Shown: piece after piece, positions 12,646-32,000 of the stretch | Layout: each line of letters begins with the position of its first letter | How positions within the stretch are numbered: the first letter of the stretch is position 1 | Assembly (NCBI RefSeq): GCF_001735745.1 | Contig: NZ_CP017260.1 | Span: forward strand, 510,001-542,000 | Origin: Formosa sp. Hel1_33_131 | GTDB lineage: Bacteria > Bacteroidota > Bacteroidia > Flavobacteriales > Flavobacteriaceae | Direction of reading: 5' to 3' | Length of the DNA: 32,000 nucleotides | Program-made: the position numbers and the translations under genes | The notes under the pieces: generated by a model | What the model saw: the letters and a program-made list of their open reading frames with translations, nothing else | Told to the model about the DNA's origin: nothing | Database searches by the model: none

Positions 12646-12701
12646 CTATTATAGTTTCATATAATCGCATTTAAATTTCTTGATTTAAACACTCCACAGT
12701 T

Positions 12702-13835: not shown

Positions 13836-13845
13836 TGCTGCATTT

Positions 13846-14331: not shown

Positions 14332-14653
14332 TGTACGTTTTTCTTATGGTTTTATGACGGTCTAAGTCTGTAGCTTCAAACACAATTAAGGGTTCATTGT
14401 ATTCCACTAAACGCTCTACGGATATGCTCCAATTCTGAAAGCGTTCGCTGTAAGGCATTTCCAATTGTTGATGTTGCTGTAAATACTGTAATTCAATCAA
14501 ATGGGTGTCAATGGCCATCGTATTGGAGGTGACCGCATTGGACACTAGGTTATTTAAAATCATACTCGCCAACAGAAAAGTGATCACTACAAGAACCGTT
14601 GCGATCAGAGTTTCCATGAGTGTGGAGGCCTTTATTTTTTTTAGTACAGCCAT
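14318..14653 (-). CDS. Minor pseudopilin / prepilin-type N-terminal domain protein
   Basis: 111-aa. The leader MAVLKKIKA is followed by STLMETLIATVLVVITFLLA (Glu at +5). It uses the same LKKIKA leader as the neighbouring pseudopilin. Confidence 0.65.
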   Translation of the reverse strand: MAVLKKIKASTLMETLIATVLVVITFLLASMILNNLVSNAVTSNTMAIDTHLIELQYLQQHQQLEMPYSERFQNWSISVERLVEYNEPLIVFEATDLDRHKTIRKTYNATP

Positions 14654-15918: not shown

Positions 15919-16379
15919 TAAGGGCGTTTTATGGTTTGAAGTTGGCGGTTGTAGCGCACTACAATTTCGCTAGAATTACCACGTACAAGCGTCACACTAT
16001 CGACGGTTTGCCCTTTTTTTATTATATACTGTCGGTTGTTTATATTCAACACAAAAACAGGGGTCTTGCTATGTGTTTTTTGTACGATTCCTGCATAGGT
16101 GATTTGTTTGAGGGACATTGGTTTTGGAGGGGGGCGCAAGGGTCTCTTGATTTTTTTAGGAGGTTTTGAAAACGTTCCTAAAAAGGGATCCCGATCTATC
16201 TTTTGGATGGAAAAAGAATCCATTTCGATAGGAGTAATTGGCACAAAGGTTTGGTTTTGGACGGTCTCAACTTCAAGAAGTTCTTTAGACTGTAGTGCAC
16301 TGTTTATTTTAACAGCAATGAGTCCCCAAACAATAAGGACCGCGGTGATTAGGAGGTATGTTTTTTTCTTCTTATTCAA
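15918..16379 (-). CDS. Bitopic membrane protein, PilP/GspC-like
   Basis: 153-aa with an N-terminal TM segment (TYLLITAVLIVWGLIAV) and a Pro/Lys-rich linker (KPPKKIKRPLRPPPKP). The C-terminal small beta domain ITYAGIVQ...VFVLNINNRQYIIKKGQTV..VTLVR resembles PilP/GspC HR domains. Confidence 0.45.
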   Translation of the reverse strand: MNKKKKTYLLITAVLIVWGLIAVKINSALQSKELLEVETVQNQTFVPITPIEMDSFSIQKIDRDPFLGTFSKPPKKIKRPLRPPPKPMSLKQITYAGIVQKTHSKTPVFVLNINNRQYIIKKGQTVDSVTLVRGNSSEIVVRYNRQLQTIKRP

Positions 16380-17028
16380 CAGTGAATTTTTGTGTGGTAT
16401 AGCTGGTTTGAAACGTTGGGTTTAGAGCGCGGACACGCCATTCATAGCTGTTGACGGCTAAGTTTGAAACGCTAAAAGTTGTGGCGACAGTGGTTTCGTT
16501 TTTTATAATTTCAGTGGCATTTTCAAAACTAGGAATAGCGATTTGAAAGGAATAGGTTTCTGCATTTAAAACGGGATCCCATGAAAAATTGATGGTATCT
16601 GTAGCACCAAAACTAACGGCATCCGCAGGCGCTAGCAACACGACGGTTGCTTCAGAAATATCGACATCATCCGTGGATTCCACCAAAAAACTTTGGGTTG
16701 AAAAAGCGGTGGTATATCCCGAATTTTCTGCGCGGATACGCCATTGGTAATCATTTGGCGTTAATTCCTTTGAGAAACTCGAGGTGGTGACCAAAGAATC
16801 CAACACAATTTGTGTGGCTTCGCCAAAAGTTGGTGTTGAAATTTGGAGACGGTACTGGACAGAATCTCTAAGAGATTCCCAAGAAAACGTGACATTCGCA
16901 CTGCTTAAAACACTGTTGTTTGTGGGGGCTAAAGCCGTCACTGTTTTTTGTGAAATATCTTCGACTTGTAGGATGTCTCCACAACTGATTGCTAGTGCTA
17001 AAAGGGTTATTAATTTTAAATTTCTCAT
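16372..17028 (-). CDS. Lipoprotein with two tandem Ig/Fn3-like repeats
   Basis: 218-aa with the lipobox LALAISC. Two ~95-aa repeats share the pattern LAP..a.V.s....FSW.......Y..QI..P.F..AT.I.......t.F.....L..N.Y.WR.RA.N....T....Q.F.VE. Confidence 0.55.
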   Translation of the reverse strand: MRNLKLITLLALAISCGDILQVEDISQKTVTALAPTNNSVLSSANVTFSWESLRDSVQYRLQISTPTFGEATQIVLDSLVTTSSFSKELTPNDYQWRIRAENSGYTTAFSTQSFLVESTDDVDISEATVVLLAPADAVSFGATDTINFSWDPVLNAETYSFQIAIPSFENATEIIKNETTVATTFSVSNLAVNSYEWRVRALNPTFQTSYTTQKFTVE

Positions 17029-17030
17029 CG

Positions 17031-17810
17031 CTAAAAATTTTTGTAGTTAATTTTCTTTTTGGCTTTTTTCGCAACTCGGTGGGTATTGATTGGACAGCGA
17101 TCGTCACTTTCTACGAAATCCACAATTTCAAGTTGACGTTTTCTATTTTCCTTCCAACAGGCCTTTGAGGTTTGATACCCAAACACCACCCCTTCACTGA
17201 GGTGTATTGAATGTTGTTCTTTATTTTGATTATAGGTTTTTAAGACATAATTATTGATTCCTGTATGTTCCAAAAACACTTGCTGCGCAGTGCTTAATTT
17301 AGCAGCGATTTCGGCATCGAAAACCACTGAAATTGTGGATACTAGATGTGCGTTGGTTTTGTTCTGTAAAAACTGAAAAACATCTTTATTTGCCTCACTG
17401 TTTAAGCTCTTCAAAACAGCGATACGGTCAGCAATTTCTAGTTTTAAAAAGCGAGGTTTTGGTTTCACAGAATCCACATACTTTACAACGATGGCCTTGT
17501 TTTGAGCAGATTTGGCGTTTTCAAAGGCCTTTAACTTGGATTTATTAAACGGTACTCCATTTACATGCACTTTAATCGGATGCTGGAATTGTGGGAAGGC
17601 GGTGAAATTATAGTCTTGTTCTAACAAAAAATTCTTATGGACTCCTATGGTACCAAGTTGTAAGTTTTGAGTGGTTATGTTTTGACGCTCTTGCTGAACG
17701 GACAGGGTTCTACAAGCTGTAAAACTTACTATCATTAGTGCGATGCAACTGTATTTGATCATAAGACAGGGGTGTTTGTATTTGAAAAAACGGCGTTTTT
17801 TAAACTCCAT
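17031..17810 (-). CDS. Hypothetical lipoprotein, first gene of the T2SS/T4P-like operon
   Basis: 259-aa ORF. A lipoprotein signal MIKYSCIALMIVSFTAC begins at an internal Met (nt 17762), which may be the true start. I recognise no family. Confidence 0.45.
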   Translation of the reverse strand: MEFKKRRFFKYKHPCLMIKYSCIALMIVSFTACRTLSVQQERQNITTQNLQLGTIGVHKNFLLEQDYNFTAFPQFQHPIKVHVNGVPFNKSKLKAFENAKSAQNKAIVVKYVDSVKPKPRFLKLEIADRIAVLKSLNSEANKDVFQFLQNKTNAHLVSTISVVFDAEIAAKLSTAQQVFLEHTGINNYVLKTYNQNKEQHSIHLSEGVVFGYQTSKACWKENRKRQLEIVDFVESDDRCPINTHRVAKKAKKKINYKNF

Positions 17811-18010: not shown

Positions 18011-18046
18011 GGGGCGTTTTAGCGTAAAAAAGACGTGGAGGTTGCC
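18011..18046 (-). repeat. Degenerate third copy (C) of the module-boundary repeat
   Basis: The minus strand reads GGCAACCTCCACGTCTTTTTTACGCTAAAACGCCCC. It aligns with the GCAACCTCTACG..CTTTTACGCTAA core of copies A and B. Confidence 0.55.
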
Positions 18047-18129
18047 GTGCTTACAGCTTGTGAGATATTGCCTTTTTTGGCTGCGAAAGTTATAGACTTC
18101 GTTAGCTAAGATCTTATTCTCTATCCTTT

Positions 18130-18637: not shown

Positions 18638-18898
18638 ATTTTTAATAATATACGAATGTAATGACTTGACATCACAGATTGTGACATCAAGTTTGGTTTT
18701 AGCTAATTGAAAGGTCTCTATTAATATCCTCTTTTAACCAACACGTAATTACCTAAATTCACACTTGCTTCTATGTTCGTAATTTCAAAATATTATATTG
18801 TAAAAATACTAAAACTACATCAATTTTCATATCTAAAATAGTTTCCAACTGTTTTGAGCCTGCCACGTCTTTAGCGTGGACAACTCCCTATATAACAA

Positions 18899-18949
18899 CA
18901 CATTCCCTTATAAGGGACACTTTAGCGTAAAAGAGCCGTAGAGGTTGCA
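18899..18949 (-). repeat. Module-boundary repeat, copy B (51 bp, contains the palindrome TCCCTTATAAGGGA)
   Basis: CACATTCCCTTATAAGGGACACTTTAGCGTAAAAGAGCCGTAGAGGTTGCA matches copy A (23627-23677) at 47 of 51 positions by hand alignment. It lies 9 nt downstream of the stop of the last immunity-like gene. Confidence 0.8.
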
Positions 18950-18957
18950 CGGAAGTA

Positions 18958-19407
18958 TTAATCTTCAATAAAATCATTAATTCCCAAACTATACAAAATC
19001 CTATTTTCGAACTCTTTGATTTCTGCTTTATTTTTAGATTTTGTAAAGTCTTTATTAATGCGTTTCCAATTACCTAAATCCGAATGCTTTTTTACACTGA
19101 CAAAAGCTAAGATAGTTTCTGTTTTAGATTTTTTACGAACCCAAACATACATTATTTGACTTTTTTGTGGATTGTTAAAATAAATATGATACCAATGATC
19201 TTTACCAGAACTCCTTCCATCAACAAACCCATATTTTGGCTGCACTATGTAATTCTGGTTATCTTTTTTAAATTTTTTTATAACATCAATTAATTTCTCT
19301 TCTGATAATTTAATAGTGTATCTTTCAACATAAGGATAACTACCTGGTGCTAAGTTGCATGATCCAAACAAAAGTAAAAAAAGGCATAAAATTGTAATAC
19401 TTTTCAT
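18958..19407 (-). CDS. Orphan immunity-like lipoprotein (cassette 3)
   Basis: 149-aa with the signal and lipobox MKSITILCLFLLLFGSC. The gene is very AT-rich and sits 11 nt downstream of a toxin-tip fragment, in the same relative position as the other immunity genes. The function is inferred from context only. Confidence 0.45.
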   Translation of the reverse strand: MKSITILCLFLLLFGSCNLAPGSYPYVERYTIKLSEEKLIDVIKKFKKDNQNYIVQPKYGFVDGRSSGKDHWYHIYFNNPQKSQIMYVWVRKKSKTETILAFVSVKKHSDLGNWKRINKDFTKSKNKAEIKEFENRILYSLGINDFIED

Positions 19408-19418
19408 AATTATTATTT

Positions 19419-19724
19419 TTAGTTTCCGGGTTGATTTGTAACACCTACATTGCTAATGTGGAAATCAACCATTATTTGAGCTACACCTACACCTATTGTT
19501 GGAGCAGAATTTAATTTATAAATTGTTTTTGGCAATGCTGATAAGCCTAAACCAATACCTAAAACTCCAGCCCTAATTCTAGTCTTAATCGGTAAAAGTG
19601 GATTTGAAGCTATTTGTAACTCTTCTGATACAAATTTATAATCTGCGAAAACAATTTTCACTTTTACCTCAACTAATGACTGCCAATCTTTGTCACCACT
19701 AGAAAATTCTAGCGGGAGCGGGGG
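19419..19724 (-). other. 5'-truncated toxin-tip fragment (orphan cassette 3) with Gly-zipper-like hydrophobic segments
   Basis: The frame is open from about 19724. The ORF track begins at a GTG at 19661 and there is no ATG. The translation reads PPLPLEFSSGDKDWQSLVEVKVKIVFADYKFVSEELQIASNPLLPIKTRIRAGVLGIGLGLSALPKTIYKLNSAPTIGVGVAQIMVDFHISNVGVTNQPGN. It starts inside junction repeat F and has no Rhs core. Confidence 0.35.
19682..19721 (-). repeat. Cassette-junction repeat F
   Basis: GCCAATCTTTGTCACCACTAGAAAATTCTAGCGGGAGCGG shares two identical 11-nt blocks (GCCAATCTTTG, TAGCGGGAGCG) plus CCACTA with repeat E. It overlaps the stop codon of the upstream immunity gene. Confidence 0.7.
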
Positions 19725-20382
19725 TTATATCCAAAACAACAATTGGTATTAAAGCATAATCAAAAGATATTTCATTATTAGAAATATAGCTTACTAACAC
19801 TCTGTTGATTTTATTTAATAAATTAATATTTATATTAGAGGAACAAGAAATAGACACAATACCATCTTCATACATATATATGGCATATTTATCACGATTT
19901 CTAGTGCCAGAAAACAAAGGTATATAGACTAACGAATCAGTATTTTTAATTAAATATTGATTAATGTTCTTTTCATTTATATTGTCTATTTGTTCAAAAT
20001 TATTTGAATAGAAACCAATTTTCATATTTTTATTAAGACATCTTTGATTCTTATTATTTGGAAATAACTTTATCTCTGATTTAGGATAATTAAATAAGTT
20101 GTTTTTACTAAATACTAAAAGACTATCGTTTTTATCAATTTTAAAAATATATTTATTATCTCTAATAATATCTATTTCTGCGCAGGTTTGGTGTAAATAT
20201 TTATTTATTTTTTTTTCTAATTCACTATCATTAAAATTCAAATCATAATCTAATGTATAAAAAGACACACACTCTTTTATGATTTCTTTATCAGCTAAAT
20301 TTTCTTTTGAAAAAGAAAAAAATATCCAAACAACAAAGGCTGTAACTGAAATAAAGAAAAGGTAGTAGTATTTTAATCTCAT
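19699..20382 (-). CDS. Putative immunity protein of orphan toxin 2 (N-terminally membrane-anchored)
   Basis: 227-aa with an N-terminal TM segment (YYYLFFISVTAFVVWIFFSF). The gene is very AT-rich and lies 12 nt downstream of the orphan Rhs-CT. I recognise no family. Confidence 0.5.
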   Translation of the reverse strand: MRLKYYYLFFISVTAFVVWIFFSFSKENLADKEIIKECVSFYTLDYDLNFNDSELEKKINKYLHQTCAEIDIIRDNKYIFKIDKNDSLLVFSKNNLFNYPKSEIKLFPNNKNQRCLNKNMKIGFYSNNFEQIDNINEKNINQYLIKNTDSLVYIPLFSGTRNRDKYAIYMYEDGIVSISCSSNININLLNKINRVLVSYISNNEISFDYALIPIVVLDITPAPARIF

Positions 20383-20394
20383 AAAAAATATGAT

Positions 20395-21375
20395 TTATTT
20401 CATTATTGAATGTAATGAACTAAAATGCTTATCTGAATGAACTTCAATTATTAGAGTAGGGATTCTGCCTGCGCTGTCAGTAAGACCTCTATCAAAGAAT
20501 ATTGCATTCTCAAATATATCTCCGCCACTACTACTGTAAATTTCATAAGATTTCATAAAGTTAAAAAATCTATTATTTTTACTTAATAACGTTGACAACT
20601 TTCCATTAAATAGAACATTTTCGCCATTGAAATTAAAACCACTTTGAAACCTTATATTTCCAAAGGAATTTGGGAGTTGGTCAATACCTAAGTCAATTTT
20701 AGAGAAAGCTAAACTAATATCTCCATATGGATTATCTCTCAATTCTTGATTTTTGTTAATTTGACTTTGTAGGCCTTGTTCTATTGCTACTGGTATTCTT
20801 CCCGATACATAACTATTCCAATCGAATTTTTGACCATGTCCATCTCCTAAATTCCTATTCCACAAACCTTCAAATCCATCTGTAGTATTAAATCCCCAAT
20901 TTTTTATTACATCAGATTTGGTTGCTCCTCCATATTGTAAGCCAGCAGCAGTTGCTTGTCCTTTAGAAGTTATATCTTCTCGCCAAACCCATGTATCACC
21001 ATCTTTACCTCTTACCCAATCAAACCATTCCCCCCCATCAGGATCTACTCCATTAATCGGATTATTACCCATCCCTAAATACGGAGAGCTATACTGCCCA
21101 GCAGGATCCACAGTCAACCATCTTCCAATCCTACCATCCCAAAGTCTCAACTCAAACGCCTCTTTTCCCGTTTCAGCGTCTTTTTCTTGTCCTTGGAATT
21201 TGTACCTATAATTGCCTTCTATATTGCGGTTAGGCATTGGCATCCCAAATGGATAGTAGTCTGTTTTCGCAGTTAAAGATACAGCATTTTCGCCATTTTT
21301 CATAATCACGGCTCGTACATTTCCTAAATGGTCGGTGAGTTGAACTCGCCAATCTTTGACGCCACTAAGTACAAC
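20395..21375 (-). CDS. Orphan Rhs C-terminal fragment 2: end of the Rhs core plus a 211-aa toxin domain of unknown type
   Basis: The ORF track lists 20395..21309 (GTG start). The frame is open back to the immunity-1 stop at 21376. Translation is VVLSGVKDWRVQLTDHLGNVRAVIMKNGENAVSLTAKTDYYPFGMPMPNRNIEGNYRYKFQGQEKDAETGKEAFELRLWDGRIGRWLTVDPAGQYSSPYLGMGNNPINGVDPDGG followed by a unique C-terminus. It lacks a signal peptide and the YD-repeat shell. Confidence 0.75.
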   Translation of the reverse strand, partial: VVLSGVKDWRVQLTDHLGNVRAVIMKNGENAVSLTAKTDYYPFGMPMPNRNIEGNYRYKFQGQEKDAETGKEAFELRLWDGRIGRWLTVDPAGQYSSPYLGMGNNPINGVDPDGGEWFDWVRGKDGDTWVWREDITSKGQATAAGLQYGGATKSDVIKNWGFNTTDGFEGLWNRNLGDGHGQKFDWNSYVSGRIPVAIEQGLQSQINKNQELRDNPYGDISLAFSKIDLGIDQLPNSFGNIRFQSGFNFNGENVLFNGKLSTLLSKNNRFFNFMKSYEIYSSSGGDIFENAIFFDRGLTDSAGRIPTLIIEVHSDKHFSSLHSIMK

Positions 21376-21388
21376 TTAGCGGGAGCGC
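21348..21388 (-). repeat. Cassette-junction repeat E
   Basis: GCCAATCTTTGACGCCACTAAGTACAACTTAGCGGGAGCGC pairs with repeat F. It spans the stop codon of immunity 1 and the first codons (..LSGVKDWR..) of orphan fragment 2. Confidence 0.7.
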
Positions 21389-21957
21389 AAACTAGCACCA
21401 TCAGGGGCGTATTTCACATGTATAAATATTAAATAATTAATAGAATTTCTAAATACCTCATTTTGAAATTCGTTCATTTCAATTAACCCATATAAAATTT
21501 CTTTTGTTGGGTATCCTTTTTTAAAAATTTCAAAATACTTTTTTCTTATTTTACTTGAAAGTTTAGCTTCGATAGGACAATTATCAAACATGAAATTCAT
21601 AGTAGTAATATCATTGGATATGTAATTAAGAAAACCAGAGTTTTTTATTGTGATTTCTTTAATTAATTCAATTTTATTATGAGTTAATTTTTTGATTAAT
21701 TCATGGTAATCATTCTGATTTTTTCCTAAAAGAATACCTTCATCAATTAATTTGTTTTCAAATACACTAATTGAGTCAGATAAACTGATTTTATTATAAT
21801 TTATAGAATTATATATTGAACTCTTTATGTTTATTCTATTTGTTATCTTAGTATTAATACAATTCTCAAATTCAATAAATGATTTACTATTGTCATTACA
21901 TGAAAATATCATTACCCCTAAAATGAAAAAAATAATATTTTTAATCTTTGAAACCAT
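21376..21957 (-). CDS. Putative immunity lipoprotein of orphan toxin 1
   Basis: 193-aa with the signal and lipobox MVSKIKNIIFFILGVMIFSC. The start overlaps the orphan toxin 3' end by 17 nt and the gene is very AT-rich. Confidence 0.55.
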   Translation of the reverse strand: MVSKIKNIIFFILGVMIFSCNDNSKSFIEFENCINTKITNRINIKSSIYNSINYNKISLSDSISVFENKLIDEGILLGKNQNDYHELIKKLTHNKIELIKEITIKNSGFLNYISNDITTMNFMFDNCPIEAKLSSKIRKKYFEIFKKGYPTKEILYGLIEMNEFQNEVFRNSINYLIFIHVKYAPDGASLRSR

Positions 21958-23482
21958 TGCTTCTCCCTATATAATTATATTTTGGTTTTTTAGTAAATAT
22001 TTGCTGTTGAAATGCATCTTTATTCTTAGTATGAACAGTTAATTGAACAGCACCTGCTAGCTGCCAAACAATCCTACCATTCATCAAATATCCAAATCTA
22101 ATATTGTGATGCGTTATTCTCTTATCTGAGCCAAACATAGTTCCATAATCGTCATCTGGATGTTTCAAAGTATTTCCAAAAACAGCAGGATGGTACTTCA
22201 CATTAAATAAAAAACCTTCAGAAGTATACCACTGAACCGCAAGACTAATATCGACATTTTTTCCATTAATTTCAATTGACCCCTTATAATCAATAGGTGT
22301 TTGAAGTTGATATTTAATACCCCCAAAATAATCAGAAGATAACCACGCATTAGCTCCATCCGAAGCACTGTGCTGTAAAGCAAAGTTAAAATGATCTATA
22401 ACTCTTTGTTGCGTAGCTCTCCCCCCAGTTAATTGTAATCTTAATAAATCAGTCCCGAACATATCATATACGTTTCGACCAGATACAGTAGTAACTCCTG
22501 CTTGAATATTGTTCTCATTCCCATTTAATAAACCCTTTGCTTGATCATATGTAACTCCGTATTGATCAACAAAAGATTGAACAGTATCATTTTCTTCAGC
22601 AACATAAGAAACAGAACCATCAGCATTAACAATAGGTTTCCAAAATGCCCCATCAGGATCCGTTCCATTAATCGGATTATTCCCCATCCCTAAATATGGA
22701 CTCGCATATTGCCCCGCAGGATCCGTCGTCAACCACCGTCCTATTCGACCATCCCAAAGTCTCAACTCAAACGCCTCTTTTCCCGTTTCAGAGTCTTTTT
22801 CTTGTCCTTGGAATTTATACCTATAATTGCCTTCTATATTGCGGTTAGGCATTGGCATCCCAAAGGGATAGTAGTCTGTTTTCGCAGTTAAAGATACAGC
22901 ATTTCCGCCATTTTTCATAATCACCGCACGTACATTTCCTAAATGGTCGGTGAGTTGATAGACATCGCTGTTGGTTTGGCGGTAGTGGACCCCCAAACGG
23001 CTGCTGCCATAAATGGGTTGTTCTTTGAGCACGGTGGGTTGGCGTATTGTGGGTCCAAAGGCACCAGTATAAATGCCCATTGGACTGCCAGAAGCATCCC
23101 GTACATAGTAGGTTAGATAGGTATTCCCTGAACTATAAACTTCTTTACGTACACGCTGCCCCCGATCGTCATAGAAAAAGGCGAGTTTGGAGGCTGTGGG
23201 GACTTGCAGGTTGATGTTGTCTATGGAGATGCGTCCAAAACCAACGCAGTCGCGTTGGACTTCAATAGTAATGGTGGAGGTGGTGGGCGTGAATTCAAAA
23301 CTGTTGTGGGCTGTCAGATAGGGTGCACAGGCAGGGGTGTTTCCTACATTAGAAGTGGCGGTTGGGTTGGGACTGTTATGTGCCGCGGTGCCTAAGATGG
23401 TTCCGTTGGCATCTTTGATGGTGATGATGGCGGGTAAAAGAGCCGTAGAGGTTAGGGGTCCTAGTTTTATATGACAAACCAT
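21941..23482 (-). CDS. Orphan Rhs C-terminal fragment 1: unrelated 5' segment, last part of the Rhs core, and a 234-aa toxin domain of unknown type
   Basis: 513-aa. Residues ~95-275 parallel the end of the main Rhs (FFYDDRGQRVRKEVY..YYVRDASGSPMGIY..YGSSRLGVHYR..YQLTDHLGNVRAVIMKNG...NNPINGTDPDGA). A unique C-terminus follows. There is no signal peptide and no YD shell. Confidence 0.8.
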   Translation of the reverse strand: MVCHIKLGPLTSTALLPAIITIKDANGTILGTAAHNSPNPTATSNVGNTPACAPYLTAHNSFEFTPTTSTITIEVQRDCVGFGRISIDNINLQVPTASKLAFFYDDRGQRVRKEVYSSGNTYLTYYVRDASGSPMGIYTGAFGPTIRQPTVLKEQPIYGSSRLGVHYRQTNSDVYQLTDHLGNVRAVIMKNGGNAVSLTAKTDYYPFGMPMPNRNIEGNYRYKFQGQEKDSETGKEAFELRLWDGRIGRWLTTDPAGQYASPYLGMGNNPINGTDPDGAFWKPIVNADGSVSYVAEENDTVQSFVDQYGVTYDQAKGLLNGNENNIQAGVTTVSGRNVYDMFGTDLLRLQLTGGRATQQRVIDHFNFALQHSASDGANAWLSSDYFGGIKYQLQTPIDYKGSIEINGKNVDISLAVQWYTSEGFLFNVKYHPAVFGNTLKHPDDDYGTMFGSDKRITHHNIRFGYLMNGRIVWQLAGAVQLTVHTKNKDAFQQQIFTKKPKYNYIGRSNGFKD

Positions 23483-23626
23483 TCTCCCTCAAAACTCCCC
23501 TTCTCTCTTTAGTTCTCTCTTTAAACCCTTAATAGATACCAAACCTATACAAAAACCTCCTTAGCTATAAGCTTTGATACCAAATACTCTGTTGTTTCTC
23601 TTTCTTCTTAACACAATTCTTCCAAA

Positions 23627-23677
23627 CACATTCCCTTATAAGGGACAACTTAGCGTAAAAGTGTCGTAGAGGTTGCA
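23627..23677 (-). repeat. Module-boundary repeat, copy A (51 bp, contains the palindrome TCCCTTATAAGGGA)
   Basis: CACATTCCCTTATAAGGGACAACTTAGCGTAAAAGTGTCGTAGAGGTTGCA lies 28 nt downstream of the immunity-0 stop. A 20-nt part recurs at 23434-23453 inside orphan 1. That copy is 18/20 identical to A and 20/20 identical to copy B (18927-18946). Confidence 0.8.
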
Positions 23678-23705
23678 GTGCAGTGCAATTCAATATAGTA
23701 TTTAT

Positions 23706-23945
23706 TTACCAATTATATTTTATTATTAAAGTAGCTAATACAAAAAACAAAACAAACCCTATAAGTGTATTGACTGTTTCACTTTCTATTCCATTGTATT
23801 TTCCACCTTTGCCTTCCCAGATATATTTAAATCCAACCTTTTCTTTTTTAAGAAAAATGTTTTTAGAATTTATTATTACATATCTTAAACTAGCTCCTAA
23901 AAACGAAAAAATATAATGTACAATAAAAATACCTATAACATCCAT
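23706..23945 (-). CDS. Putative immunity protein of the main Rhs toxin (small 2-TM membrane protein)
   Basis: 79-aa with two hydrophobic helices (VIGIFIVHYIFSFLGASL and TLIGFVLFFVLATLII). Its ATG overlaps the Rhs stop codon as TAATG at 23943-23947. Confidence 0.65.
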   Translation of the reverse strand: MDVIGIFIVHYIFSFLGASLRYVIINSKNIFLKKEKVGFKYIWEGKGGKYNGIESETVNTLIGFVLFFVLATLIIKYNW

Positions 23946-26900
23946 TATTTATCTCCATTTAACCAATCATCAACAACACCAATACCTATTTGATAGTATC
24001 CCATATCTCCTTTCATACTTGTGCCAATGTTTTTATGTACCCAATTCATTTTTCTATTAATAAAGCCTCTTATTTTAGGTGCTAATTTAGACAAAGTGCC
24101 CTTAAATTTACTACTGAATTGAGCAGCATTAAGAGATGGTTTTTTTATTCTACCAAATGAGGCTAATGTTAACATTCCATTTATACCTGCATCAATCCCT
24201 TCAGTGCTTCCTCTCACAACACCGTTTCCATTTAAATGTTGTGGTTGATTATTAGGACTCAATAAATCAAAAGATGTTCCAAACACATATACATTATCAA
24301 GAGTATTATAAACTGCCCCTCCGATTTTTGAACTATACGAATCTGATGCATTAAGTTTATTCTCCATTCTACCAAAGAAATTATGCTGTGTACCTCTCAT
24401 CATAGGAACATCAAAACCTTGCCCACTTTCTGTAAATCTCCAGTTACCCCATTGTTGGTTCATATTCCAAGAATCGAGGTCTGCTCCACTTACTGCCATA
24501 AAGGTTCCTGTTAACTCTCCTGGTCCATCACCGCCACCATCATCAAAAGCAAGTCCATATTTCCTTTTTCCAGTTGATACATCACTTGTATAACGCTCCC
24601 CCCTAAATCCATTTCCGACCCATCCCCAAAATCTTCCCCATTTGGTTTTCCAACCACCATCTGGGTCAATACCATTTATTGGGTCGTTACCCATTCCAAC
24701 ATACGGACTCGAAAACTGCCCATAAGGATCCGTCGTCAACCACCGTCCTATCCTGCTATCCCACAATCTAAGTTCAAAAGCCTCTTTTCCCGTTTCAGCG
24801 TCTTTTTCTTGTCCTTGGAATTTGTACCTATAATTGCCCTCAATATTTCGGTTAGGCATTGGCATCCCAAAAGGATAGTAGTCTGTTTTCGCAGTTAAAG
24901 ATACTGCATTTTCGCCATTTTTCATAATCACCGCACGTACATTTCCTAAATGGTCGGTGAGTTGGTAGGCATCTGTTCCTGTCTCGCGGTAGTGGACACC
25001 CAAACGGCTGCTGCCATAGATGGTGTGTTCTGTGAGTATGCTGTTTTCATAAATAGCCATTGGAGTGCCAGCAGCATCGCGTACATAGTAGGTGGTGGTG
25101 GTTCCGGATGGGAGAATACTTTCTTTTTTCATTCGATGGCCTCTGTCGTTATAATAGAACCGGACGCGTGGCGTTCCATTTTTTTGTACTTCTGTGACCA
25201 ATCCACTGGCGTTGTAGGCATATTTTACCTGTTCGTCTTTGTTTTCTATGAGTTGCCCTATGGTGTTGTAAATATAGTTTTCTACGGTGGTTTGGTCTTT
25301 GATGTCTTCGGCATTGGTAGCTATCGTCACCGCATCATCCACACGTTGGAGCTGGTTGGGTTTGTCTGTTTTGTAGGCATAGGTCAACTCATCCATCCTG
25401 TTTGTACCGTTTTCTGTGTTTTTGTTTCGGTTCAGGGTTTGTATGTTCCCATTGGCATCGTAGGTGATGTTGCTGACTTGGTAGTCTGTGGAACCAAAGG
25501 GGTCTGAGTTGTTTGCGGGTACAATTTCGGCTGTAAATACAGAGTTGCCGCTGGCTACTATTTCTGCATTTGGCAAAAAGGTGATGGAATTGGTGGCTTG
25601 TATAGTGGCATTCGGATCTACAGTAAAATCGATAACCTCATCATCTCCTACACGTTGTGTGTTGCCATTGGCATTAAAGGTGGCGCCTGTCAACCAGTTA
25701 TTTCGGTTGTATTCATAGAGGTATTGGAAGGGGGTGTTGCCCAGGGTGTAGTCTGTATTCCAAGCAATGCTTTTGATGTTGCCATTGAATTGGTTGGTGC
25801 CAAAATCTGATACGTCAAAAGCATTGGAGCGTTTGTAATCGCCTTTGTAATAGTTGATACTCATCCCAAAAAGGTCGTTGGCATTTCCGCCGGGGTCGTC
25901 TGCTGCGGCTAAGCTAGGGTGGTTGATGGCTTTGAGTTGGCCTGCTAAATTATAGACGTAGTCTATTTGTTGTATGCCTTCTGCCAATTGCACATTGCGC
26001 AAAGCGCCTGTTTCATAGTAGTTATAGGCGGCATGTGTTGTATAACTCGCCCCATCTTGAGATGTTTCTACCTTGGTTAGACTGTAATCGATAGGATCAT
26101 AGCTGTAGCGGTGTATAAAGGTTTCGGTAGTGCTGTGTTTTTGATAGACTACCTGATTCACTTGGCTGGTAATGTCATCATACACATAATCGATGGTTTT
26201 TATGCCCAAGCCTAGGATGTTTTGCACAATCCATTGTACCCGTCCATAAACATCATAGCTGTAGTAGGTGGTGGATTGGTTGTTCTGAGTTTTGGCAACA
26301 TTTGTAGCTAAAAAGCCGGGATGGTGGTAAGCGGCATTTAATCCTGAAAGCCCCGATAATTCATTGGAGGCAAGAGCATCGTATTCTGTGAAATTTTGTT
26401 CGCTTCGACTGCCTGAAAAATTATTCGCCATATCGCCATTCAAATTGAGGCTGAAAGTGCCTTGGACTACCCCGCTTTCTATGGGTCTGCCCAAAGAGTC
26501 GTAGTTGGTGTAGGAGTATTCATTGGCAATTGCTTGCTTGCTGTTTTGCGAAAAGCGGATTTGCCCATCACTACGGTACACAAAATTAGCGGTGCCCTCG
26601 TCGGGGCTTGTGGTGCTTAGCAACTGTCCAAGTGCATTGTACTCGTAAGTGGACTCTAAGTGGTTTAGGGGTTGTTTTGAACTTATTAAATGCCCAACAT
26701 TGTCATAGGTGTTTAGGCTGTAGTCGTAGTAGTTTTCTTTGTAGGTTACTGCAATTGTTCCTGAAATGTAGGTGTCGGGATTGGTAACGGCCACTCTATA
26801 AAAGCCATTGGGAAGACTGGTGGTAGCTGCTGTTGTTGTGGTTTCTGTTATTAAATTAAAAATAGTGACTGCCGAAGCGTTTATAGAAAATCCAGTAGTG

Positions 26901-28696
26901 CCAGAGGGTACATGGATGTCCACAAAGCCTTGTGCCCCAATGGGGATGGTCATAGCTCTAGAGGTACCACCCCCAGAGCGTGCGGCGGCAAGTGTTTTGC
27001 CGTCGGTGTCTGTAAACACCACATTTTCTATGCCGTGCACATCTCTGACAACGGTTTTCATGATTTTACGGTTATTCGAATCGTATGAGGCACTGTTAAA
27101 AGCATTGGCTTGGGACAATTCTTGACTGGCAGGCATGGAAAAGGTATAGGATTGTAGCCAATCATCATTGTCGTCAATGTCACCATCATTGTCTGTATCT
27201 ACTTTGTTCCCTCCTATGGTTTTTAAGACTGCGCCGGGATTCAGATCGCTGAAAAAAGCTCTTGAAAAGGGATGGTCTGTGATGTCTTGGTAAGGCTCGT
27301 CTGTGTTATTATTGCTATAGTACCAACCTACTGTGTTTTCTTGTATGTTTGTTGAACTAATGTTTGAAAATGAATTCTCATACAGCTGTTTAATATTCCC
27401 TTGGGTTGGTGCAGAAAAGGTGTTAAATGACGGCCTTCCTTGTGGGTCATATTTTGTTTCGGAGAGCCATAGTTTATAGGTTTTAAAACTAAGCGCTTGT
27501 GATTGTGTTGGCTTTCCCAATCGGTTAAAATAATTAAGCGATTGTCCTATCAATTGACCCGATACATCGTAGGAACATTTAGACGTGTAATTAAACGTTT
27601 TGGTTCCCAATTTTTCATCACATGGACAATAGGCTCCTTTGTAGGAAAAATCATCGGAACTGTGATAATCATAGCTGTAATAGAGATGGTTGTTATCTTC
27701 TTGAAAGGGATTGGTTTTTAAAGTGCCTAATGCCAACCAAGCTAAGCTTTTTGGAAACACACTAAAATCCTCTATGCTTAATAAATCTCCATAGGTCAAA
27801 CAAGCAGAGGTCACAAACGGATCTTTTCCAAATACCTCTTTTCCTGTTTTCAGTTTGATGTATTCACTCATAGCAACCACAACTCTGTAATCTTCAATTT
27901 CACTTCCTAGCGTTGTTGATAATACGGTGTTGCCGTCATACACAAATGCAATGGTATTGCCGTCACGTTTCATTGCTATTTTTTTACTAGGGTCAAAAGA
28001 GGATGAGATGTCTTGGGAAGCAAAAGAAACCGCTTGTCTGTTAAAACCAATAAGGTCAATCGTTTCGTTGATAGGGATGTTATCAGGGGTTGTAGTTGGT
28101 GAAATCTCAATACACGTTTTTTTGTCAATGACAAGTCCTAAGGGGAGTTGTATGTCAGAGTTAGAATAAGGGCTTCCTAAATTAAAATTTAAACGGTAAT
28201 TATACCTGTCTTTTATCGCTAATGAATTGTCACCACTTAAAGGAAATGTATCGGAATCAGGAAGCGTACATAATTGATCTTTGTGTACCAAAAAAATACC
28301 CACTTGATAGGATGGTGGAAAATAAAAATAGCCATTATCTCCTGTAAGAGGATACCATCTTTTTTTTAAAATTGGAATTCCACTTATTTCTTCAGACGAT
28401 TGTTTGAAATTTTCTGACTGAAGAAACCTGATGTTCTCCAAACTCATTTCAAAACTCTCATTGTCTTTAGGAATCACTTTTAATGAAAGGATCTTAGTTG
28501 ATTTTGAAGCTTGATTACTAAAATTAATTCCTTCTTGATCTGTAATGATGGACTCATTGTACAGTTGTTCTTCGGAAGTGTTTATTAAAAACTGGGCCGT
28601 ATTAGAATCCCATTGAACAAGGTCTTGTCCAAAAACAGTGTTATGAATCCCCAAAAGGATTAATAACATTAAAATAATTTTTGTTTTAGTTTCCAT
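23945..28696 (-). CDS. Rhs/YD-repeat polymorphic toxin with a Sec signal peptide, DUF6443-like N-terminal region, YD shell, PxxxxDPxG core end and a 235-aa variable C-terminal toxin
   Basis: The ORF track gives 23945..28753. I prefer the internal ATG at 28696, which gives METKTKIILMLLILLGIHNTVFG/QD (a clear signal peptide) and removes the 68-nt overlap with the upstream gene. There are many YD repeats (YDPQGRP, YDNVGHL, YNALGQL, YDSLGRP, YDVYGRV, YDANGNI...). The core end is YQLTDHLGNVRAV...GNDPINGIDPDGG, with DPDGG encoded at 24653-24667. Confidence 0.9.
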   Translation of the reverse strand: METKTKIILMLLILLGIHNTVFGQDLVQWDSNTAQFLINTSEEQLYNESIITDQEGINFSNQASKSTKILSLKVIPKDNESFEMSLENIRFLQSENFKQSSEEISGIPILKKRWYPLTGDNGYFYFPPSYQVGIFLVHKDQLCTLPDSDTFPLSGDNSLAIKDRYNYRLNFNLGSPYSNSDIQLPLGLVIDKKTCIEISPTTTPDNIPINETIDLIGFNRQAVSFASQDISSSFDPSKKIAMKRDGNTIAFVYDGNTVLSTTLGSEIEDYRVVVAMSEYIKLKTGKEVFGKDPFVTSACLTYGDLLSIEDFSVFPKSLAWLALGTLKTNPFQEDNNHLYYSYDYHSSDDFSYKGAYCPCDEKLGTKTFNYTSKCSYDVSGQLIGQSLNYFNRLGKPTQSQALSFKTYKLWLSETKYDPQGRPSFNTFSAPTQGNIKQLYENSFSNISSTNIQENTVGWYYSNNNTDEPYQDITDHPFSRAFFSDLNPGAVLKTIGGNKVDTDNDGDIDDNDDWLQSYTFSMPASQELSQANAFNSASYDSNNRKIMKTVVRDVHGIENVVFTDTDGKTLAAARSGGGTSRAMTIPIGAQGFVDIHVPSGTTGFSINASAVTIFNLITETTTTAATTSLPNGFYRVAVTNPDTYISGTIAVTYKENYYDYSLNTYDNVGHLISSKQPLNHLESTYEYNALGQLLSTTSPDEGTANFVYRSDGQIRFSQNSKQAIANEYSYTNYDSLGRPIESGVVQGTFSLNLNGDMANNFSGSRSEQNFTEYDALASNELSGLSGLNAAYHHPGFLATNVAKTQNNQSTTYYSYDVYGRVQWIVQNILGLGIKTIDYVYDDITSQVNQVVYQKHSTTETFIHRYSYDPIDYSLTKVETSQDGASYTTHAAYNYYETGALRNVQLAEGIQQIDYVYNLAGQLKAINHPSLAAADDPGGNANDLFGMSINYYKGDYKRSNAFDVSDFGTNQFNGNIKSIAWNTDYTLGNTPFQYLYEYNRNNWLTGATFNANGNTQRVGDDEVIDFTVDPNATIQATNSITFLPNAEIVASGNSVFTAEIVPANNSDPFGSTDYQVSNITYDANGNIQTLNRNKNTENGTNRMDELTYAYKTDKPNQLQRVDDAVTIATNAEDIKDQTTVENYIYNTIGQLIENKDEQVKYAYNASGLVTEVQKNGTPRVRFYYNDRGHRMKKESILPSGTTTTYYVRDAAGTPMAIYENSILTEHTIYGSSRLGVHYRETGTDAYQLTDHLGNVRAVIMKNGENAVSLTAKTDYYPFGMPMPNRNIEGNYRYKFQGQEKDAETGKEAFELRLWDSRIGRWLTTDPYGQFSSPYVGMGNDPINGIDPDGGWKTKWGRFWGWVGNGFRGERYTSDVSTGKRKYGLAFDDGGGDGPGELTGTFMAVSGADLDSWNMNQQWGNWRFTESGQGFDVPMMRGTQHNFFGRMENKLNASDSYSSKIGGAVYNTLDNVYVFGTSFDLLSPNNQPQHLNGNGVVRGSTEGIDAGINGMLTLASFGRIKKPSLNAAQFSSKFKGTLSKLAPKIRGFINRKMNWVHKNIGTSMKGDMGYYQIGIGVVDDWLNGDK

Positions 28697-31600
28697 AATT
28701 GTAGTAGTTTTTAGATACTGTTTTAAATCCTCCTGGTACAGAGGGCGTATCAATTATTTCTGAGTAGGTTTTAATAAGTCGTCCAGCGGCATCGTATTCA
28801 AACTTGCTTGCCAAACCATTGGTTCCAATAATGTACCAGAGTTCGTCCCATTCGTTGTAAACATAGCTGGTCATGGAAGAAGCGATGGGGTGTACTCTAA
28901 GATCATCTGCATAAATATTCCCATTATTTGAAGTTATATTGATATATCCACTGGATCCGTTTAAATCCATATAATGATTTAATTGCACCCAATCCCCTGC
29001 CGTTATTTGTTCGCCATTAAAAGGAACGGGGGCACTGCCAAATCCGACCCTCACATTTGCTGCTCTGTCCCTCACATCTACTCCATTGTCTTTTTTGACC
29101 CAAATGGATACTTTGTAAGTTCCGGATCTGTGTTTTCCAGAAACGAAATCAACATGGATGCTGTTGCCAGGGGCTATTTGTATGGACTGGGTTCCTGTGT
29201 GGGCATAGGTACTCACTCTTGAAGCGCCATTGACGAGCTTAATTTGTTGTCCTATAAAATTACTAGCTAATGGATCTTCGGCTCCTGTATAAAAACACTC
29301 TCCATATTTTGCATTTGCAGACATAAACACTTTACTGTTCGCATCTCCCATTTTGGTAGCCGCATAATTCCCATTGATATCTCTAACTTCTAAGGGCATG
29401 GAATAATGATCGTACTGGGTGGTGGTGGATATGTTTTTCCAATCCGCATTGGTTTGAGCGATCTCTGGGCCTACCGTCCAAACGAAATTTTCATCATCGT
29501 GTTCTGGAGTTGAATTTGTAAATCCTTGCAAAGTCCCATCATCGTTTAAACCCCCATCCCATACAAAGGATTTGTGCTTGCGCCAAATCTTAAATTTCCT
29601 TCCAATACCATCATTAGGAGGAGAGGAAACGCCTCCAGAATAGTCCGTATAGAACCAATCATTATTCCAAGTCGTGATCCCTACCCCCGTTTCTTTCCAA
29701 TCACCCGCAATATCTATATAGGTTTTGCTCATCGCTTGTTGACTTAGCATGTTTTTATTGGTAAGGTTATCTACTTTGCTTCCCATACTGTAATCACCTG
29801 AACCATATTCTGGGATGGCGTAAGCAGGCACCAACTCTGTTTTAAAGCGGTTGCCTTTGCTGTCGTCTGTGATGGTTTCTAGGACTTGGCCAGTATTAAA
29901 ATCATATTTACCGTAAACTTCAGTAAAAGTATAGCCTCCACTAGTCTTTCTACTAAATAATAAAGCATTTGGGTTGATTATTTTTGAAGACGAGTTTAAC
30001 AGGTATTGATCGACACTACCTTGTATTTTATTTTTAGTATATGAATAAAAAGTTTCCTGAATTACTCCTTGATTGTTTTCATTAAAATCTCTATAAACAT
30101 TATTTGTCTTAGATAATAATTGGTTAGAAGTATTATAATTAGACACGCTTAATAATCTCCCGATGGCTGATTTATTATCCTTAACGACATATTTTGTAGA
30201 AGAAATTTTAGCATTATTGCCATTAACTGAATATGTACCAGAACTTTCGGTAGGAGTTTTATTTATATATAAAAGACCTAAAGAGTATGAACTATTATCC
30301 GTTTTGACTATAGGTTTAAATGTTTCAAAATTATAAACCGTTTTAGAGCTGACTGTATTGTCTGATCCAATTTTTTCTGTTGTAACATACCCATAAGTCA
30401 CACCAGGAGGGGGCATTTCGGTGACATATTCAATCTCCTTATCAAATTTAGAAGGCGCATAAGATGTTATTCCTGAAGATCTATAACTAGAACTATTTGG
30501 ATCACTACTGTAATTTAAATCATTATAGTAATAATTAGTTTTATAAGATATTGTTCCATCTGTAATAGCAATATCCTTCACCCTAAGCCCACCTCCTTTT
30601 CTGTTTTTTTTAGAATCTTTAGCAAATATTTTAAACAAAAATGTTACGGCTGTATCATCCCTACAAGTATCTGGCAAATCTGGAAATTGACCCCTTAATA
30701 AATTTTGCATTGTATGATCGGAAAAACCAAGCCCCATAGGCCCTGAACTATATAACCAGTTTAGCCCATCATTATAATTATGAGTATGGCTTAATGAAGT
30801 TTCAAAAGTCACCTTAGTATCCGAAACATAGACTACATTAACAAATTCATTCTGTATATCTATACTGCCAGACCTATCTTCACAAAAAGGGTCACGATAC
30901 TCATGTAATAACGCAGCCCATATATCAACTTTAACGGGTGCACCTACTTGAAAATAATCGTTGAAATAATTTAAATCTTTACTATCCGTTTTATTTTCTA
31001 TATCAAATCTTAGTTTCCCTTCATGATTATAAAAATTAAATTGAATTCCATCATTATATGTTCTGAAATTCGTTGCAGCTTCTTGATAAAAATCATCAGG
31101 CTCATATGTAATTTCAAATTTTGAACCTAATGGAGTTGAAATATATTTTAAACTTGAGCTTTCAGGGTAATCAGCCGTGAACCCCCAAGAATCTTCATTA
31201 TCACTATTGTATATTGAAACATCATTTAAGTAACTGAACTCATAAGGTGGAATTAAACTTTCTTGTCCCCTTCCTAAAAAGTTTACATTACTTAAAGTAA
31301 GCTTCCCTTTTTGAGCTAACAATGAATTTGGAGAATTTCGCATCGATGGATAGGTTTCGTCATAATGCATTTCAATGTGATTAATTTTAAAATCATTTAT
31401 ATTGGAAAAATTATTAGCAATATCATTAGAGTTTAATACATTATTATAAAACTCGCCTTTCCACTCCTTTAAGCTTCCATTATTTAATAACGGATAATTT
31501 GCATGATATACTTCTCTATAAGCAGTATCATAAACTCTTATCTCTTCTTCAAAATACATTTCACCAATTTCTTTTCCGTTACTTTCTGATGTATAGGTTT

Positions 31601-32000
31601 TAATATTAGAAGGTACATCTTCATTTTTAAGAACAAAAATTTCTTTTAGCCTCAATGATTTATGTTTATTGATATTAACATATTCTTTATGCCAAATATT
31701 AGAAAAATAGACCCCAGTAGAAATATTCATAGCATGATTATCATATATGCCTTTAACAAAATATGTTGAACCACTATGCCCTAATACTTGTTTGTCTCCA
31801 TAATTATAAACTCGTGGAGAAGTTAAACTCGCTCCAATGTTAATTTCTACTCCATAATTATCATTTCTATCTTCTTTTACAAATAATGCGGTATGTGTTC
31901 TAGTTTTAATCATATCCAAATAATAAATCTCTTTCACCCCCCATCCATAAGATTTTGATTGATCATTCTTGTGATAAGTTAAATCCTTAGTTGGAGTTCT
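28686..32000 (-). CDS. Large beta-rich Rhs-associated protein (5' end outside the window) with degenerate YD repeats and a CBM/jelly-roll-like module near the C-terminus
   Basis: The frame stays open from the listed GTG (31937) to the window edge (RTPTKDLTYHKNDQSKSYGWG-VKEIYY...), so the protein is more than 1104 aa. YD-like repeats occur in the C-terminal third (YGKYDFNTGQVLETITDDSKGNRF, QYDHYSMPLEVRDINGNYAATKM, FEYDAAGRLIKTY). The GTQSIQIAPGNSIHVDF...YKVSIWVKK...GDWVQL...IYADDLRVHP block looks like a carbohydrate-binding jelly roll. The stop codon is 7 nt before the Rhs start. Confidence 0.6.
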   Translation of the reverse strand, partial: RTPTKDLTYHKNDQSKSYGWGVKEIYYLDMIKTRTHTALFVKEDRNDNYGVEINIGASLTSPRVYNYGDKQVLGHSGSTYFVKGIYDNHAMNISTGVYFSNIWHKEYVNINKHKSLRLKEIFVLKNEDVPSNIKTYTSESNGKEIGEMYFEEEIRVYDTAYREVYHANYPLLNNGSLKEWKGEFYNNVLNSNDIANNFSNINDFKINHIEMHYDETYPSMRNSPNSLLAQKGKLTLSNVNFLGRGQESLIPPYEFSYLNDVSIYNSDNEDSWGFTADYPESSSLKYISTPLGSKFEITYEPDDFYQEAATNFRTYNDGIQFNFYNHEGKLRFDIENKTDSKDLNYFNDYFQVGAPVKVDIWAALLHEYRDPFCEDRSGSIDIQNEFVNVVYVSDTKVTFETSLSHTHNYNDGLNWLYSSGPMGLGFSDHTMQNLLRGQFPDLPDTCRDDTAVTFLFKIFAKDSKKNRKGGGLRVKDIAITDGTISYKTNYYYNDLNYSSDPNSSSYRSSGITSYAPSKFDKEIEYVTEMPPPGVTYGYVTTEKIGSDNTVSSKTVYNFETFKPIVKTDNSSYSLGLLYINKTPTESSGTYSVNGNNAKISSTKYVVKDNKSAIGRLLSVSNYNTSNQLLSKTNNVYRDFNENNQGVIQETFYSYTKNKIQGSVDQYLLNSSSKIINPNALLFSRKTSGGYTFTEVYGKYDFNTGQVLETITDDSKGNRFKTELVPAYAIPEYGSGDYSMGSKVDNLTNKNMLSQQAMSKTYIDIAGDWKETGVGITTWNNDWFYTDYSGGVSSPPNDGIGRKFKIWRKHKSFVWDGGLNDDGTLQGFTNSTPEHDDENFVWTVGPEIAQTNADWKNISTTTQYDHYSMPLEVRDINGNYAATKMGDANSKVFMSANAKYGECFYTGAEDPLASNFIGQQIKLVNGASRVSTYAHTGTQSIQIAPGNSIHVDFVSGKHRSGTYKVSIWVKKDNGVDVRDRAANVRVGFGSAPVPFNGEQITAGDWVQLNHYMDLNGSSGYINITSNNGNIYADDLRVHPIASSMTSYVYNEWDELWYIIGTNGLASKFEYDAAGRLIKTYSEIIDTPSVPGGFKTVSKNYYNYGN

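Follow-up and report, generated by a model that had tools for sequence, protein, structure and literature searches.

Most of the Rhs toxins studied in Gram-negative bacteria are delivered by a type VI secretion system (T6SS), and how Rhs proteins leave or enter Gram-negative cells without it is poorly understood. Here we analysed a window of 32 000 nucleotides, the whole stretch being NZ_CP017260.1 positions 510,001 to 542,000, from Formosa sp. Hel1_33_131, a culturable marine model and North Sea bloom-associated strain (PMC6246565). The window encodes an Rhs protein with a C-terminal tip (CT1) and a small downstream gene (I1), followed by three cassettes designated orphans 1 to 3, with tips CT2 to CT4 and small genes I2 to I4. 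We read the locus as a T6SS-independent Rhs polymorphic-toxin locus with reservoir cassettes, and give this reading as a whole a probability of about 85%. A preliminary description of the same DNA had placed it in a Flavobacteriia-like background, in agreement with its flavobacterial host, and had called such loci little studied. The latter is fair, but passages of a computational survey already catalogue signal-peptide (Sec/'T2SS', type II secretion system) RHS toxins with cassette arrays, in which the median is three cassettes for each active toxin (Zhang et al., 2012; PMC3482391).

The main Rhs gene and the cassettes all lie on the minus strand. The complete gene of 1583 codons given in the preliminary description was confirmed by the open reading frame (ORF) list and by the TIGR03696 and RHS_repeat matches, with an alternative TTG start that extends the ORF to 23945..28753; its product is an exact match to FORMB_04830 / WP_069675921.1 of Formosa sp. 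Hel1_33_131. The N-terminus reads METKTKIILMLLILLGIHNTVFG/QD and resembles a signal peptide, of the Sec type by appearance. The N-terminal 350 or so residues vary by lineage, and a profile search gave a weak DUF6443 match in the first 650. A YD-repeat shell follows (approximately residues 357–1348), then the core end DPDGG and then CT1. Matches within the protein included a YD repeat at residues 664–702 (TIGR01643, E = 1.9e-8; NCBIfam), RHS_repeat (PF05593, E = 1.8e-7; Pfam) and the Rhs-associated core TIGR03696 at residues 1273–1347 (53.5 bits; NCBIfam), and residues 357–1348 (~990 amino acids) could be aligned to 23 Flavobacteriaceae loci with 44–56% identity. Across the main gene and orphans 1 and 2, TIGR03696 scored 53.5–54.6 bits against a cutoff of 32.5. 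The cores of orphans 1 and 2 end in DPDGA and DPDGG, respectively, each of which fits the predicted cleavage motif DPxG. With its YD/RHS shell, TIGR03696 core with DPxG, variable tip and adjacent small gene, the predicted protein qualifies as an Rhs polymorphic toxin.

The three successively shorter modules described downstream on the same strand were recovered in the ORF list, as copies of the core repeat and by NCBIfam, and ORFs, repeats and core domains all fit the classical main-plus-orphan Rhs architecture that had been proposed. NCBIfam and alignment agreed with the earlier description that orphan 1 keeps about 180 residues of core (TIGR03696 at residues 204–278; NCBIfam) and orphan 3 none, the stretch 19419..19724 carrying no Rhs core. 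Orphan 2 likewise retains core, but the length first given, about 95 residues, was corrected to about 100 because DNA homology begins 27 nt upstream of the GTG start of its ORF (20395..21309, 304 amino acids; TIGR03696 at residues 18–92, NCBIfam). The core tail forms a 300-nt direct repeat present three times (24657–24956, 22650–22949 and 21035–21334; 87–91% identity), and this homology stops exactly after the DPDGG, DPDGA and DPDGG codons, where the tips diverge at once. As had been described, the four tips are unrelated to one another and so are the four small proteins, the best mutual similarity in an all-against-all BLASTP comparison being E = 0.03. The G + C content declines stepwise from cores (0.43–0.47) through tips (0.33–0.37) to small genes (0.22–0.27), which matches the description of the last as AT-rich. 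The ORFs of orphans 1 and 2 are intact, as are those of the four small genes. Gene junctions are tight, with a 17-nt overlap between orphan 1 and I2. The approximately 100 N-terminal residues of orphan 1 are Rhs-like in composition (G + C 0.51) and do not align to the main gene. This segment is 70% identical in P0224, a metagenome protein of 741 amino acids with CT2 behind a longer Rhs fragment, and orphan 1 is therefore derived from a different Rhs allele. Coordinates of all features are given in Table 1.

Table 1. Features of the Rhs locus and its surroundings, in window coordinates
Feature	Coordinates	Strand	Evidence
Giant upstream gene, 3' part (runs off the window)	28686..32000	minus	ORF list
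Main Rhs gene, 1583 amino acids from ATG at 28696	23945..28696	minus	ORF list, NCBIfam, Pfam
CT1, 235-residue tip of the main gene	23948..24652	minus	homologs, alignment
I1, 79 amino acids, two transmembrane spans, candidate CT1 immunity	23706..23945	minus	ORF list, hydrophobicity
60-nt repeat R, copy 1, just after I1	23625..23684	minus	
Orphan 1, 513-codon ORF: ~100 residues of divergent Rhs segment, ~180 of core, DPDGA, CT2	21941..23482	minus	ORF list, NCBIfam
CT2, tip of orphan 1	21944-22645	minus	
I2, 193-residue predicted lipoprotein, lipobox-like IFSC, candidate CT2 immunity	21376..21957	minus	
REP-like hairpin, junction of I2 3' end and orphan 2 5' edge	21340..21395	minus	
Orphan 2: ~100 residues of core tail (21031-21334), DPDGG, CT3	20395..21334	minus	ORF list, NCBIfam, DNA alignment
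CT3, tip of orphan 2	20398-21030	minus	
I3, 227 amino acids, one N-terminal hydrophobic span (membrane anchor), candidate CT3 immunity	19699..20382	minus	
REP-like hairpin, junction of I3 3' end and CT4 remnant	19675..19725	minus	
Orphan 3, 5'-truncated toxin remnant, last ~78 residues of domain	19419..19661	minus	homolog search, family alignment
I4, 149-residue predicted lipoprotein, lipobox-like FGSC, candidate immunity	18958..19407	minus	
60-nt repeat R, copy 2, just after I4	18897..18956	minus	
Conserved downstream block, seven genes	12702..17810	minus	Pfam, synteny

Hydrophobic spans and lipobox-like motifs agreed with the order of small proteins first reported, namely a protein with two transmembrane spans, a lipoprotein, a membrane-anchored protein and a second lipoprotein. 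The start of I1 overlaps the Rhs stop codon as TAATG. All four combinations of tip and small gene were found adjacent again in unrelated genomes, and toxin/immunity pairing is therefore supported. For CT1 and I1, a two-transmembrane ORF of 75 codons follows CT1 homologs twice in Subsaximicrobium (L024, with 34% identity to I1) and in a Polaribacter metagenome-assembled genome (L018). A homolog of I2 (47% identity) lies directly after the CT2 homolog P0011 (56% identity; locus L025), homologs of I3 (33–35% identity) follow the CT3 homologs P0040 and P0029 (loci L029 and L030), and a 149-residue homolog of I4 (59% identity) follows P0031, a full-length toxin of the CT4 family (loci L027 and L028). 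Based on these recurrences, the small genes are supported as the cognate candidate immunity genes of the adjacent tips. A helix-turn-helix (HTH) gene was seen directly after the I2 homolog in L025. In L024 (Subsaximicrobium wynnwilliamsii), the Rhs orphan modules have between them a duplicated unit (4879–8925 and 11215–15261) that consists of an HTH gene, a gene of 507 codons and a pair of genes for tyrosine recombinases; no integrase or HTH genes like these are present in the window.

Comparison with close relatives showed different tips on gene bodies that are 98–100% identical across natural strains. The sister contig L031 has 98% DNA identity to the window over 7.3 kb of giant gene and Rhs body, and its last ~90 core residues are 88% identical to those of the main gene in the window. 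The DNA of its core tail is 93–94% identical to the core tails of the window orphans, and its tip is a lysozyme-family domain (PF00959) with another gene downstream as candidate immunity. An orphan-type core tail joined to another tip is the footprint expected of recombination from a cassette into the main gene. CT1 itself was found at 100% identity in orphan-sized ORFs (P0168–P0170), and P0164 and P0173 (1561 amino acids each) as well as P0172 carry other tips on bodies within the same 90%-identity cluster; a lysozyme-family tip is annotated on P0173 and the tip of P0172 is different again. A further contig, L032, is 99–100% identical to the window across the first two modules and differs in the third, and its main Rhs gene, interrupted by a 150-nt deletion (8760–8767, against 24891–25040 in the window), is split in two ORFs, 1228 and 304 codons long. 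In L031 (23155–23500, compared with 16835 in the window) a CT3/I3 cassette was also found after three hairpin elements and inside the homolog of 16372..17028, the gene of the 218-residue Ig/fn3-like protein, which may be due to relocation of the cassette or to metagenome misassembly.

Profile searches placed neither tips nor small proteins in a well-characterised toxin family, in line with the preliminary description, since the four tips and four small proteins had no Pfam, NCBIfam or PDB sequence match even at permissive thresholds. Of the new toxin/immunity families first suggested, up to four in number, three intact toxins and four immunity genes stand as candidates; the fourth toxin does not, as it is a remnant that lacks an HD motif. 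The N-terminal segment of CT1, GWKTKWGRFWGWVGNGF, is common to an AHH-nuclease protein, and the rest of CT1 has conserved residues E97, D119, H139, R147 and S149. Ten CT1 homologs were identified, mostly orphan-sized and from Flavobacteriaceae, and none had a Pfam match. The remaining tips were searched as a concatenated query (CT2, CT3 and CT4) against 1.84 billion representative proteins, for which 150 matches were listed. Among the matches listed, about 90 of the 150 were relatives of CT2, some of them at the C-termini of DUF6443/RHS proteins, and about 52 of the 150 aligned solely to the last ~78 residues of CT4; CT3 had about five relatives.

Structure prediction of the tips was successful for CT2, the AlphaFold model of which (33 homologs) had a mean predicted local distance difference test score (pLDDT) of 94.8 and a predicted template modelling score of 0.91. 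The model had no fold match in the PDB or among viral structures at E ≤ 0.001. The first ~55 residues of the CT2 model are arranged as beta-alpha-alpha-beta (strand 12–15, helices 22–29 and 33–39, strand 53–55), and a local, weak Foldseek alignment relates CT2 to a phage LysM protein (48 columns, 31% identity, probability 0.84, E = 0.68); Pfam gave no LysM match in CT2. The predicted N-terminal segment thus hints at peptidoglycan binding.

Matches of the CT4 type were always located at the extreme C-terminus of their proteins, which were orphan-sized, of the DUF6443/RHS type that also carries CT2-type domains or, in one case, a Fil_haemagg (CdiA-like) protein. The family alignment indicated a full domain of about 190 residues with the conserved motifs YPGGNNP, YPAIGHDRRYD and GADW. 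The copy in the window starts at ADYKFV and has lost the YPGGNNP and GHDRRYD motifs. Orphan 3 had been taken for a whole toxin tip; what was found is a fragment of a toxin family, and because the conserved HD motif of the family is missing it is counted, as far as its sequence can tell, as a dead toxin, with the immunity gene next to it, I4, still intact. The CT4 family motifs resemble the signature of parvovirus-type phospholipase A2 (YxGxG / HDxxY). PF08398 was matched weakly by one of 19 family members (E = 0.05), and an hhalign comparison with AAV2 VP1u aligned the motif columns, though with a probability of only 2.5%.

The three downstream modules might instead be inert rearrangement debris with no role as toxin, donor or immunity determinant. 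This would fit the truncation of orphan 3, the coincidence of orphan junctions with hairpins and short repeats, a promoter signal no better than chance and the pseudogene that adjoins the array. It fits poorly with the intact ORFs of orphans 1 and 2 and of the four small genes, the similarity of I4 to a homolog paired with a full-length toxin, the presence of one and the same CT1 both in orphan-sized ORFs and at the end of a full-length gene, and the cassette-to-main footprint in the sister strain. We consider debris unlikely and prefer to regard the modules as reservoir cassettes. The pseudogene is an ORF6N/KilA-N-like gene on the minus strand at approximately 18100–18640, broken by in-frame stops; the matching place in L031 (21508..22023) holds an intact ORF6N gene of 171 codons.

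The hairpins that adjoin orphans 2 and 3 on their 5' side are copies of an element of about 50 nt, CCCCGCT-CCCGCTAG...CTAGTGG...AAAGATTGGCAG, resembling repetitive extragenic palindromes (REP), with stems that covary among copies through compensatory changes. The element overlaps the final codons of I2 and I3, and comparison with I3 homologs put the normal end of I3 before the element. Further copies were located in L031 (17488, 19106, 23320 and 23448) and in the Aquimarina locus L023 (12407–12436, 12761–12791, 14176–14199 and 14445–14468). Copies in L023 flank ORFs of IS200-like Y1 transposases, the family being assigned by eye from the translation; Pfam matched Y1_Tnp in an ORF of L001 only, and no transposase was found in the window. 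In an unbiased metagenome scan the element proved widespread in marine contigs, being present in over 119 stretches, in most cases behind unrelated accessory genes. Of the 40 copies for which the upstream sequence was long enough, only eight had an Rhs core tail no more than 2 kb upstream, and the remaining informative copies follow capsule, toxin-antitoxin and other accessory genes. The junction hairpin was ruled out as a cassette-specific recombination site because of this proportion, and it is, judged by its distribution, a general REP-like element, enriched at cassettes and not dedicated to them.

The two copies of repeat R (88% identity) bracket the three-cassette array. A 20-nt core of the repeat, AACCTCTACGGCTCTTTTAC, is also present at the 5' end of the ORF of orphan 1 (23434–23453) and again at 18009–18045, about 900 bp further downstream, and the repeat also follows the first immunity gene in L031. 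Repeat R was rejected as a terminator, as its hairpin of 5 bp is weak and lacks a T-run, and as terminator-like sites were no more frequent than expected by chance.

Upstream of the Rhs gene, a homolog of the giant gene (1588–2550 amino acids) was present in all 23 related loci, which belong to Aquimarina, Flagellimonas, Croceitalea, Maribacter, Pricia, Polaribacter, Salegentibacter, Sinomicrobium and others, and in 20–21 of the 23 it is preceded by genes for an OmpH-like chaperone and a lipoprotein of about 200 residues. The 1811-residue giant homolog of L001 had no Pfam family and no PDB sequence match, and the fragment in the window gave weak Golvesin_C and RHS matches only (Pfam). Proteins of about 300 residues with a weak Phage_T4_gp36 tail-fibre-like C-terminus were also observed close to the OmpH-like gene, in most cases on its upstream side, in 17 loci (L001 647–2499 and homologs).

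The giant and Rhs proteins could be the two parts of a TcB/TcC-like cocoon of an ABC-type toxin directed against eukaryotes such as algae or grazers. The two large genes adjoin, with the stop of the giant gene overlapping the Rhs start by 11 nt, the giant protein ends in a YD repeat, and a CT3 relative stands behind an SpvB/TcdB_toxin_midN/RHS protein in L030. The mature N-terminus of the giant protein (TGDFTYVLPLL...SLSYHAG) presumably recalls the N-terminal motif of SpvB as well. Pfam, however, detected neither SpvB nor TcdB_mid nor FG-GAP, whether in the giant protein of L001 or in the fragment that lies in the window, there was no PDB match, the Rhs shell is full-sized alone, and immunity genes, orphan cassettes and the lysozyme tip of the sister strain point to bacterial targets. 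A TcB/TcC pair is very unlikely; domain searches gave it no support, neither SpvB nor TcdB_toxin_mid nor a beta-propeller having been found.

The conserved block downstream of the array encodes proteins of 259, 218 (Ig/fn3-like), 153, 425, 111 and 161 amino acids and a GspF/PilC protein of 377 amino acids (229 bits); the 111- and 161-residue proteins have pilin-like N-termini (KAFTISEL and KASTLMETL). The block is syntenic in 8–10 related loci and partly in L024, and other loci have PilB, a TIGR02532 pilin and a candidate prepilin peptidase on either side of the module. The 10-kb flanks of 16 of the first 25 sequences compared (the window and L001–L024) contain genes for type IV filaments or, for L024, members of the conserved block. 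The filament set stands beside the module in L001, L005, L007, L009, L011, L013–L016, L019, L020 and L022–L024, in varying order but with linkage kept. YD-repeat proteins beside pilus genes have been reported in Bdellovibrio and Myxococcus (PMC3818213). No description of the present arrangement was found in literature searches that covered DUF6443, Rhs in Formosa, and Rhs together with pili or type IV filaments in Bacteroidota.

This neighbourhood, in many genera, together with the Bdellovibrio and Myxococcus precedent would also suit an Rhs protein whose main role is pilus-associated, at the surface or in regulation, as has been suggested for Bdellovibrio Bd0109, with a secondary role as toxin. 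We give that interpretation very little credence, as a complete core with cleavage motif, polymorphic tips, paired small genes and strain-level tip turnover are hallmarks of toxins. The filament genes and the Rhs module are linked by gene neighbourhood only. It is conceivable, though doubtful, that the OmpH-like, lipoprotein, giant and Rhs genes form with the type IV filament genes one T6SS-independent machine, so far undescribed, through which an Rhs cocoon is exported or presented in Flavobacteriaceae, with a pilus or pseudopilus as an example of the site; should this filament be a competence pilus, killing might go together with the uptake of DNA.

The remainder of the window consists of housekeeping genes, and an Rfam scan of it yielded two tRNAs and nothing else. 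The tRNA genes (12434–12506 and 12561–12645, plus strand) mark the end of the pilus-gene block, beside shikimate kinase. A 189-residue dual-specificity phosphatase-like protein encoded at 5058–5627 (minus strand) had weak matches to PF22741 and PF22785, the latter described as polymorphic toxin system DSP-PTPase.

Based on these features, we propose a toxin locus that would work as follows. The Rhs protein would be exported to the periplasm by Sec via its N-terminal signal peptide and fold as a YD-repeat shell enclosing the 235-residue CT1, and the aspartyl autoprotease of the core would free the tip at DPxG, a mechanism that is well documented in Rhs and TcC proteins. Because the host is Gram-negative an outer-membrane step is needed as well, and passage out of the producer would probably involve the OmpH-like chaperone, the lipoprotein and the giant protein, and maybe the type IV filament genes. 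The target would be the envelope of the recipient cell, the membrane for CT1 and the periplasm for CT2, CT3 and the CT4 family; envelope-acting toxins seem most likely because the four candidate immunity proteins are envelope proteins by prediction and the sister tip is lysozyme-like. The cassettes would serve as a reservoir from which homologous recombination via the shared core tail could transfer a tip, together with the adjoining immunity gene, to the gene that is expressed, the displaced pair moving downstream, and retained immunity genes would protect the cell from relatives.

Judging by its N-terminus, the protein is probably exported by Sec rather than by the T6SS. It could still be a T6SS effector carried on a VgrG/PAAR spike whose genes lie in another part of the genome, given that most characterised Gram-negative Rhs toxins are T6SS cargo and that the window covers just 32 kb. 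Such an effector was set aside as highly improbable. Neither the Rhs protein (Pfam, NCBIfam) nor any of the window ORFs scanned (Pfam) had a PAAR, VgrG or T6SS match, the examined flanks of related loci hold a different partner set, and signal-peptide-like N-termini are found on the Rhs protein here and on both Rhs and giant proteins in the two relatives inspected (L001 and L018).

Several points weigh against the toxin locus as proposed. The outer-membrane step is one that we infer from gene neighbourhood alone, the AlphaFold model of CT1 was unusable (pLDDT 36.9), the CT2 family has no invariant polar residues that would suggest a catalytic site, and a promoter scan was at chance level, with no promoter signal for the orphans beyond it. 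In addition, nuclease tips occur in relatives of this Rhs type, LHH with SUKH immunity in L024 and AHH in P0009, and envelope targeting would therefore belong to these cassettes and not to the whole system.

The same neighbour set recurs across at least 10 genera, and three intact candidate toxin families and four candidate immunity families are as yet unnamed. Strain-level turnover of toxin and immunity genes may help to explain the microdiversity and succession of bloom-associated flavobacteria.

Compared with the main-plus-orphan Rhs loci of Enterobacteria (E. coli, Salmonella, Dickeya and Serratia), the Formosa locus has the same YD body and core to DPxG, unrelated tips each with a small gene, 5'-truncated downstream copies that keep core homology, and strain-level tip replacement. 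It differs from them in a signal peptide in place of PAAR/VgrG-dependent T6SS loading, in its N-terminal region with the weak DUF6443 match, in the OmpH-like/lipoprotein/giant partner set and in toxin and immunity families that are unnamed. The Sec/T2SS RHS toxins and Gram-positive WapA share with it a signal peptide, RHS repeats, a variable tip and cassettes, and the one-to-three ratio given in passages of the survey matches the array found here; in contrast to these, the present host is Gram-negative and no tip matches a Pfam toxin family, and the passages searched of that survey do not feature the conserved neighbours (Zhang et al., 2012; PMC3482391). The TcB/TcC cocoon is alike in its Rhs/YD shell around an autoproteolytically released hypervariable tip and in the large partner gene directly upstream, whereas the Formosa locus has immunity genes and orphan cassettes, no TcA, and no SpvB, TcdB or beta-propeller detected in the partner. 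Orphan CdiA-CT/CdiI modules similarly form arrays of tips and immunity genes, with tips common to several carriers, as illustrated by the CT4 type on a Fil_haemagg protein, but the carrier here is Rhs and not a TpsA filament, and there is no CdiB. The design of the locus is thus that of a classical polymorphic toxin and is known; what is new are its families of toxins and immunity proteins, the module of conserved partners with its pilus-gene neighbourhood, the confident but unmatched predicted fold of CT2, and direct evidence from metagenomes that tips turn over in a marine strain associated with blooms.

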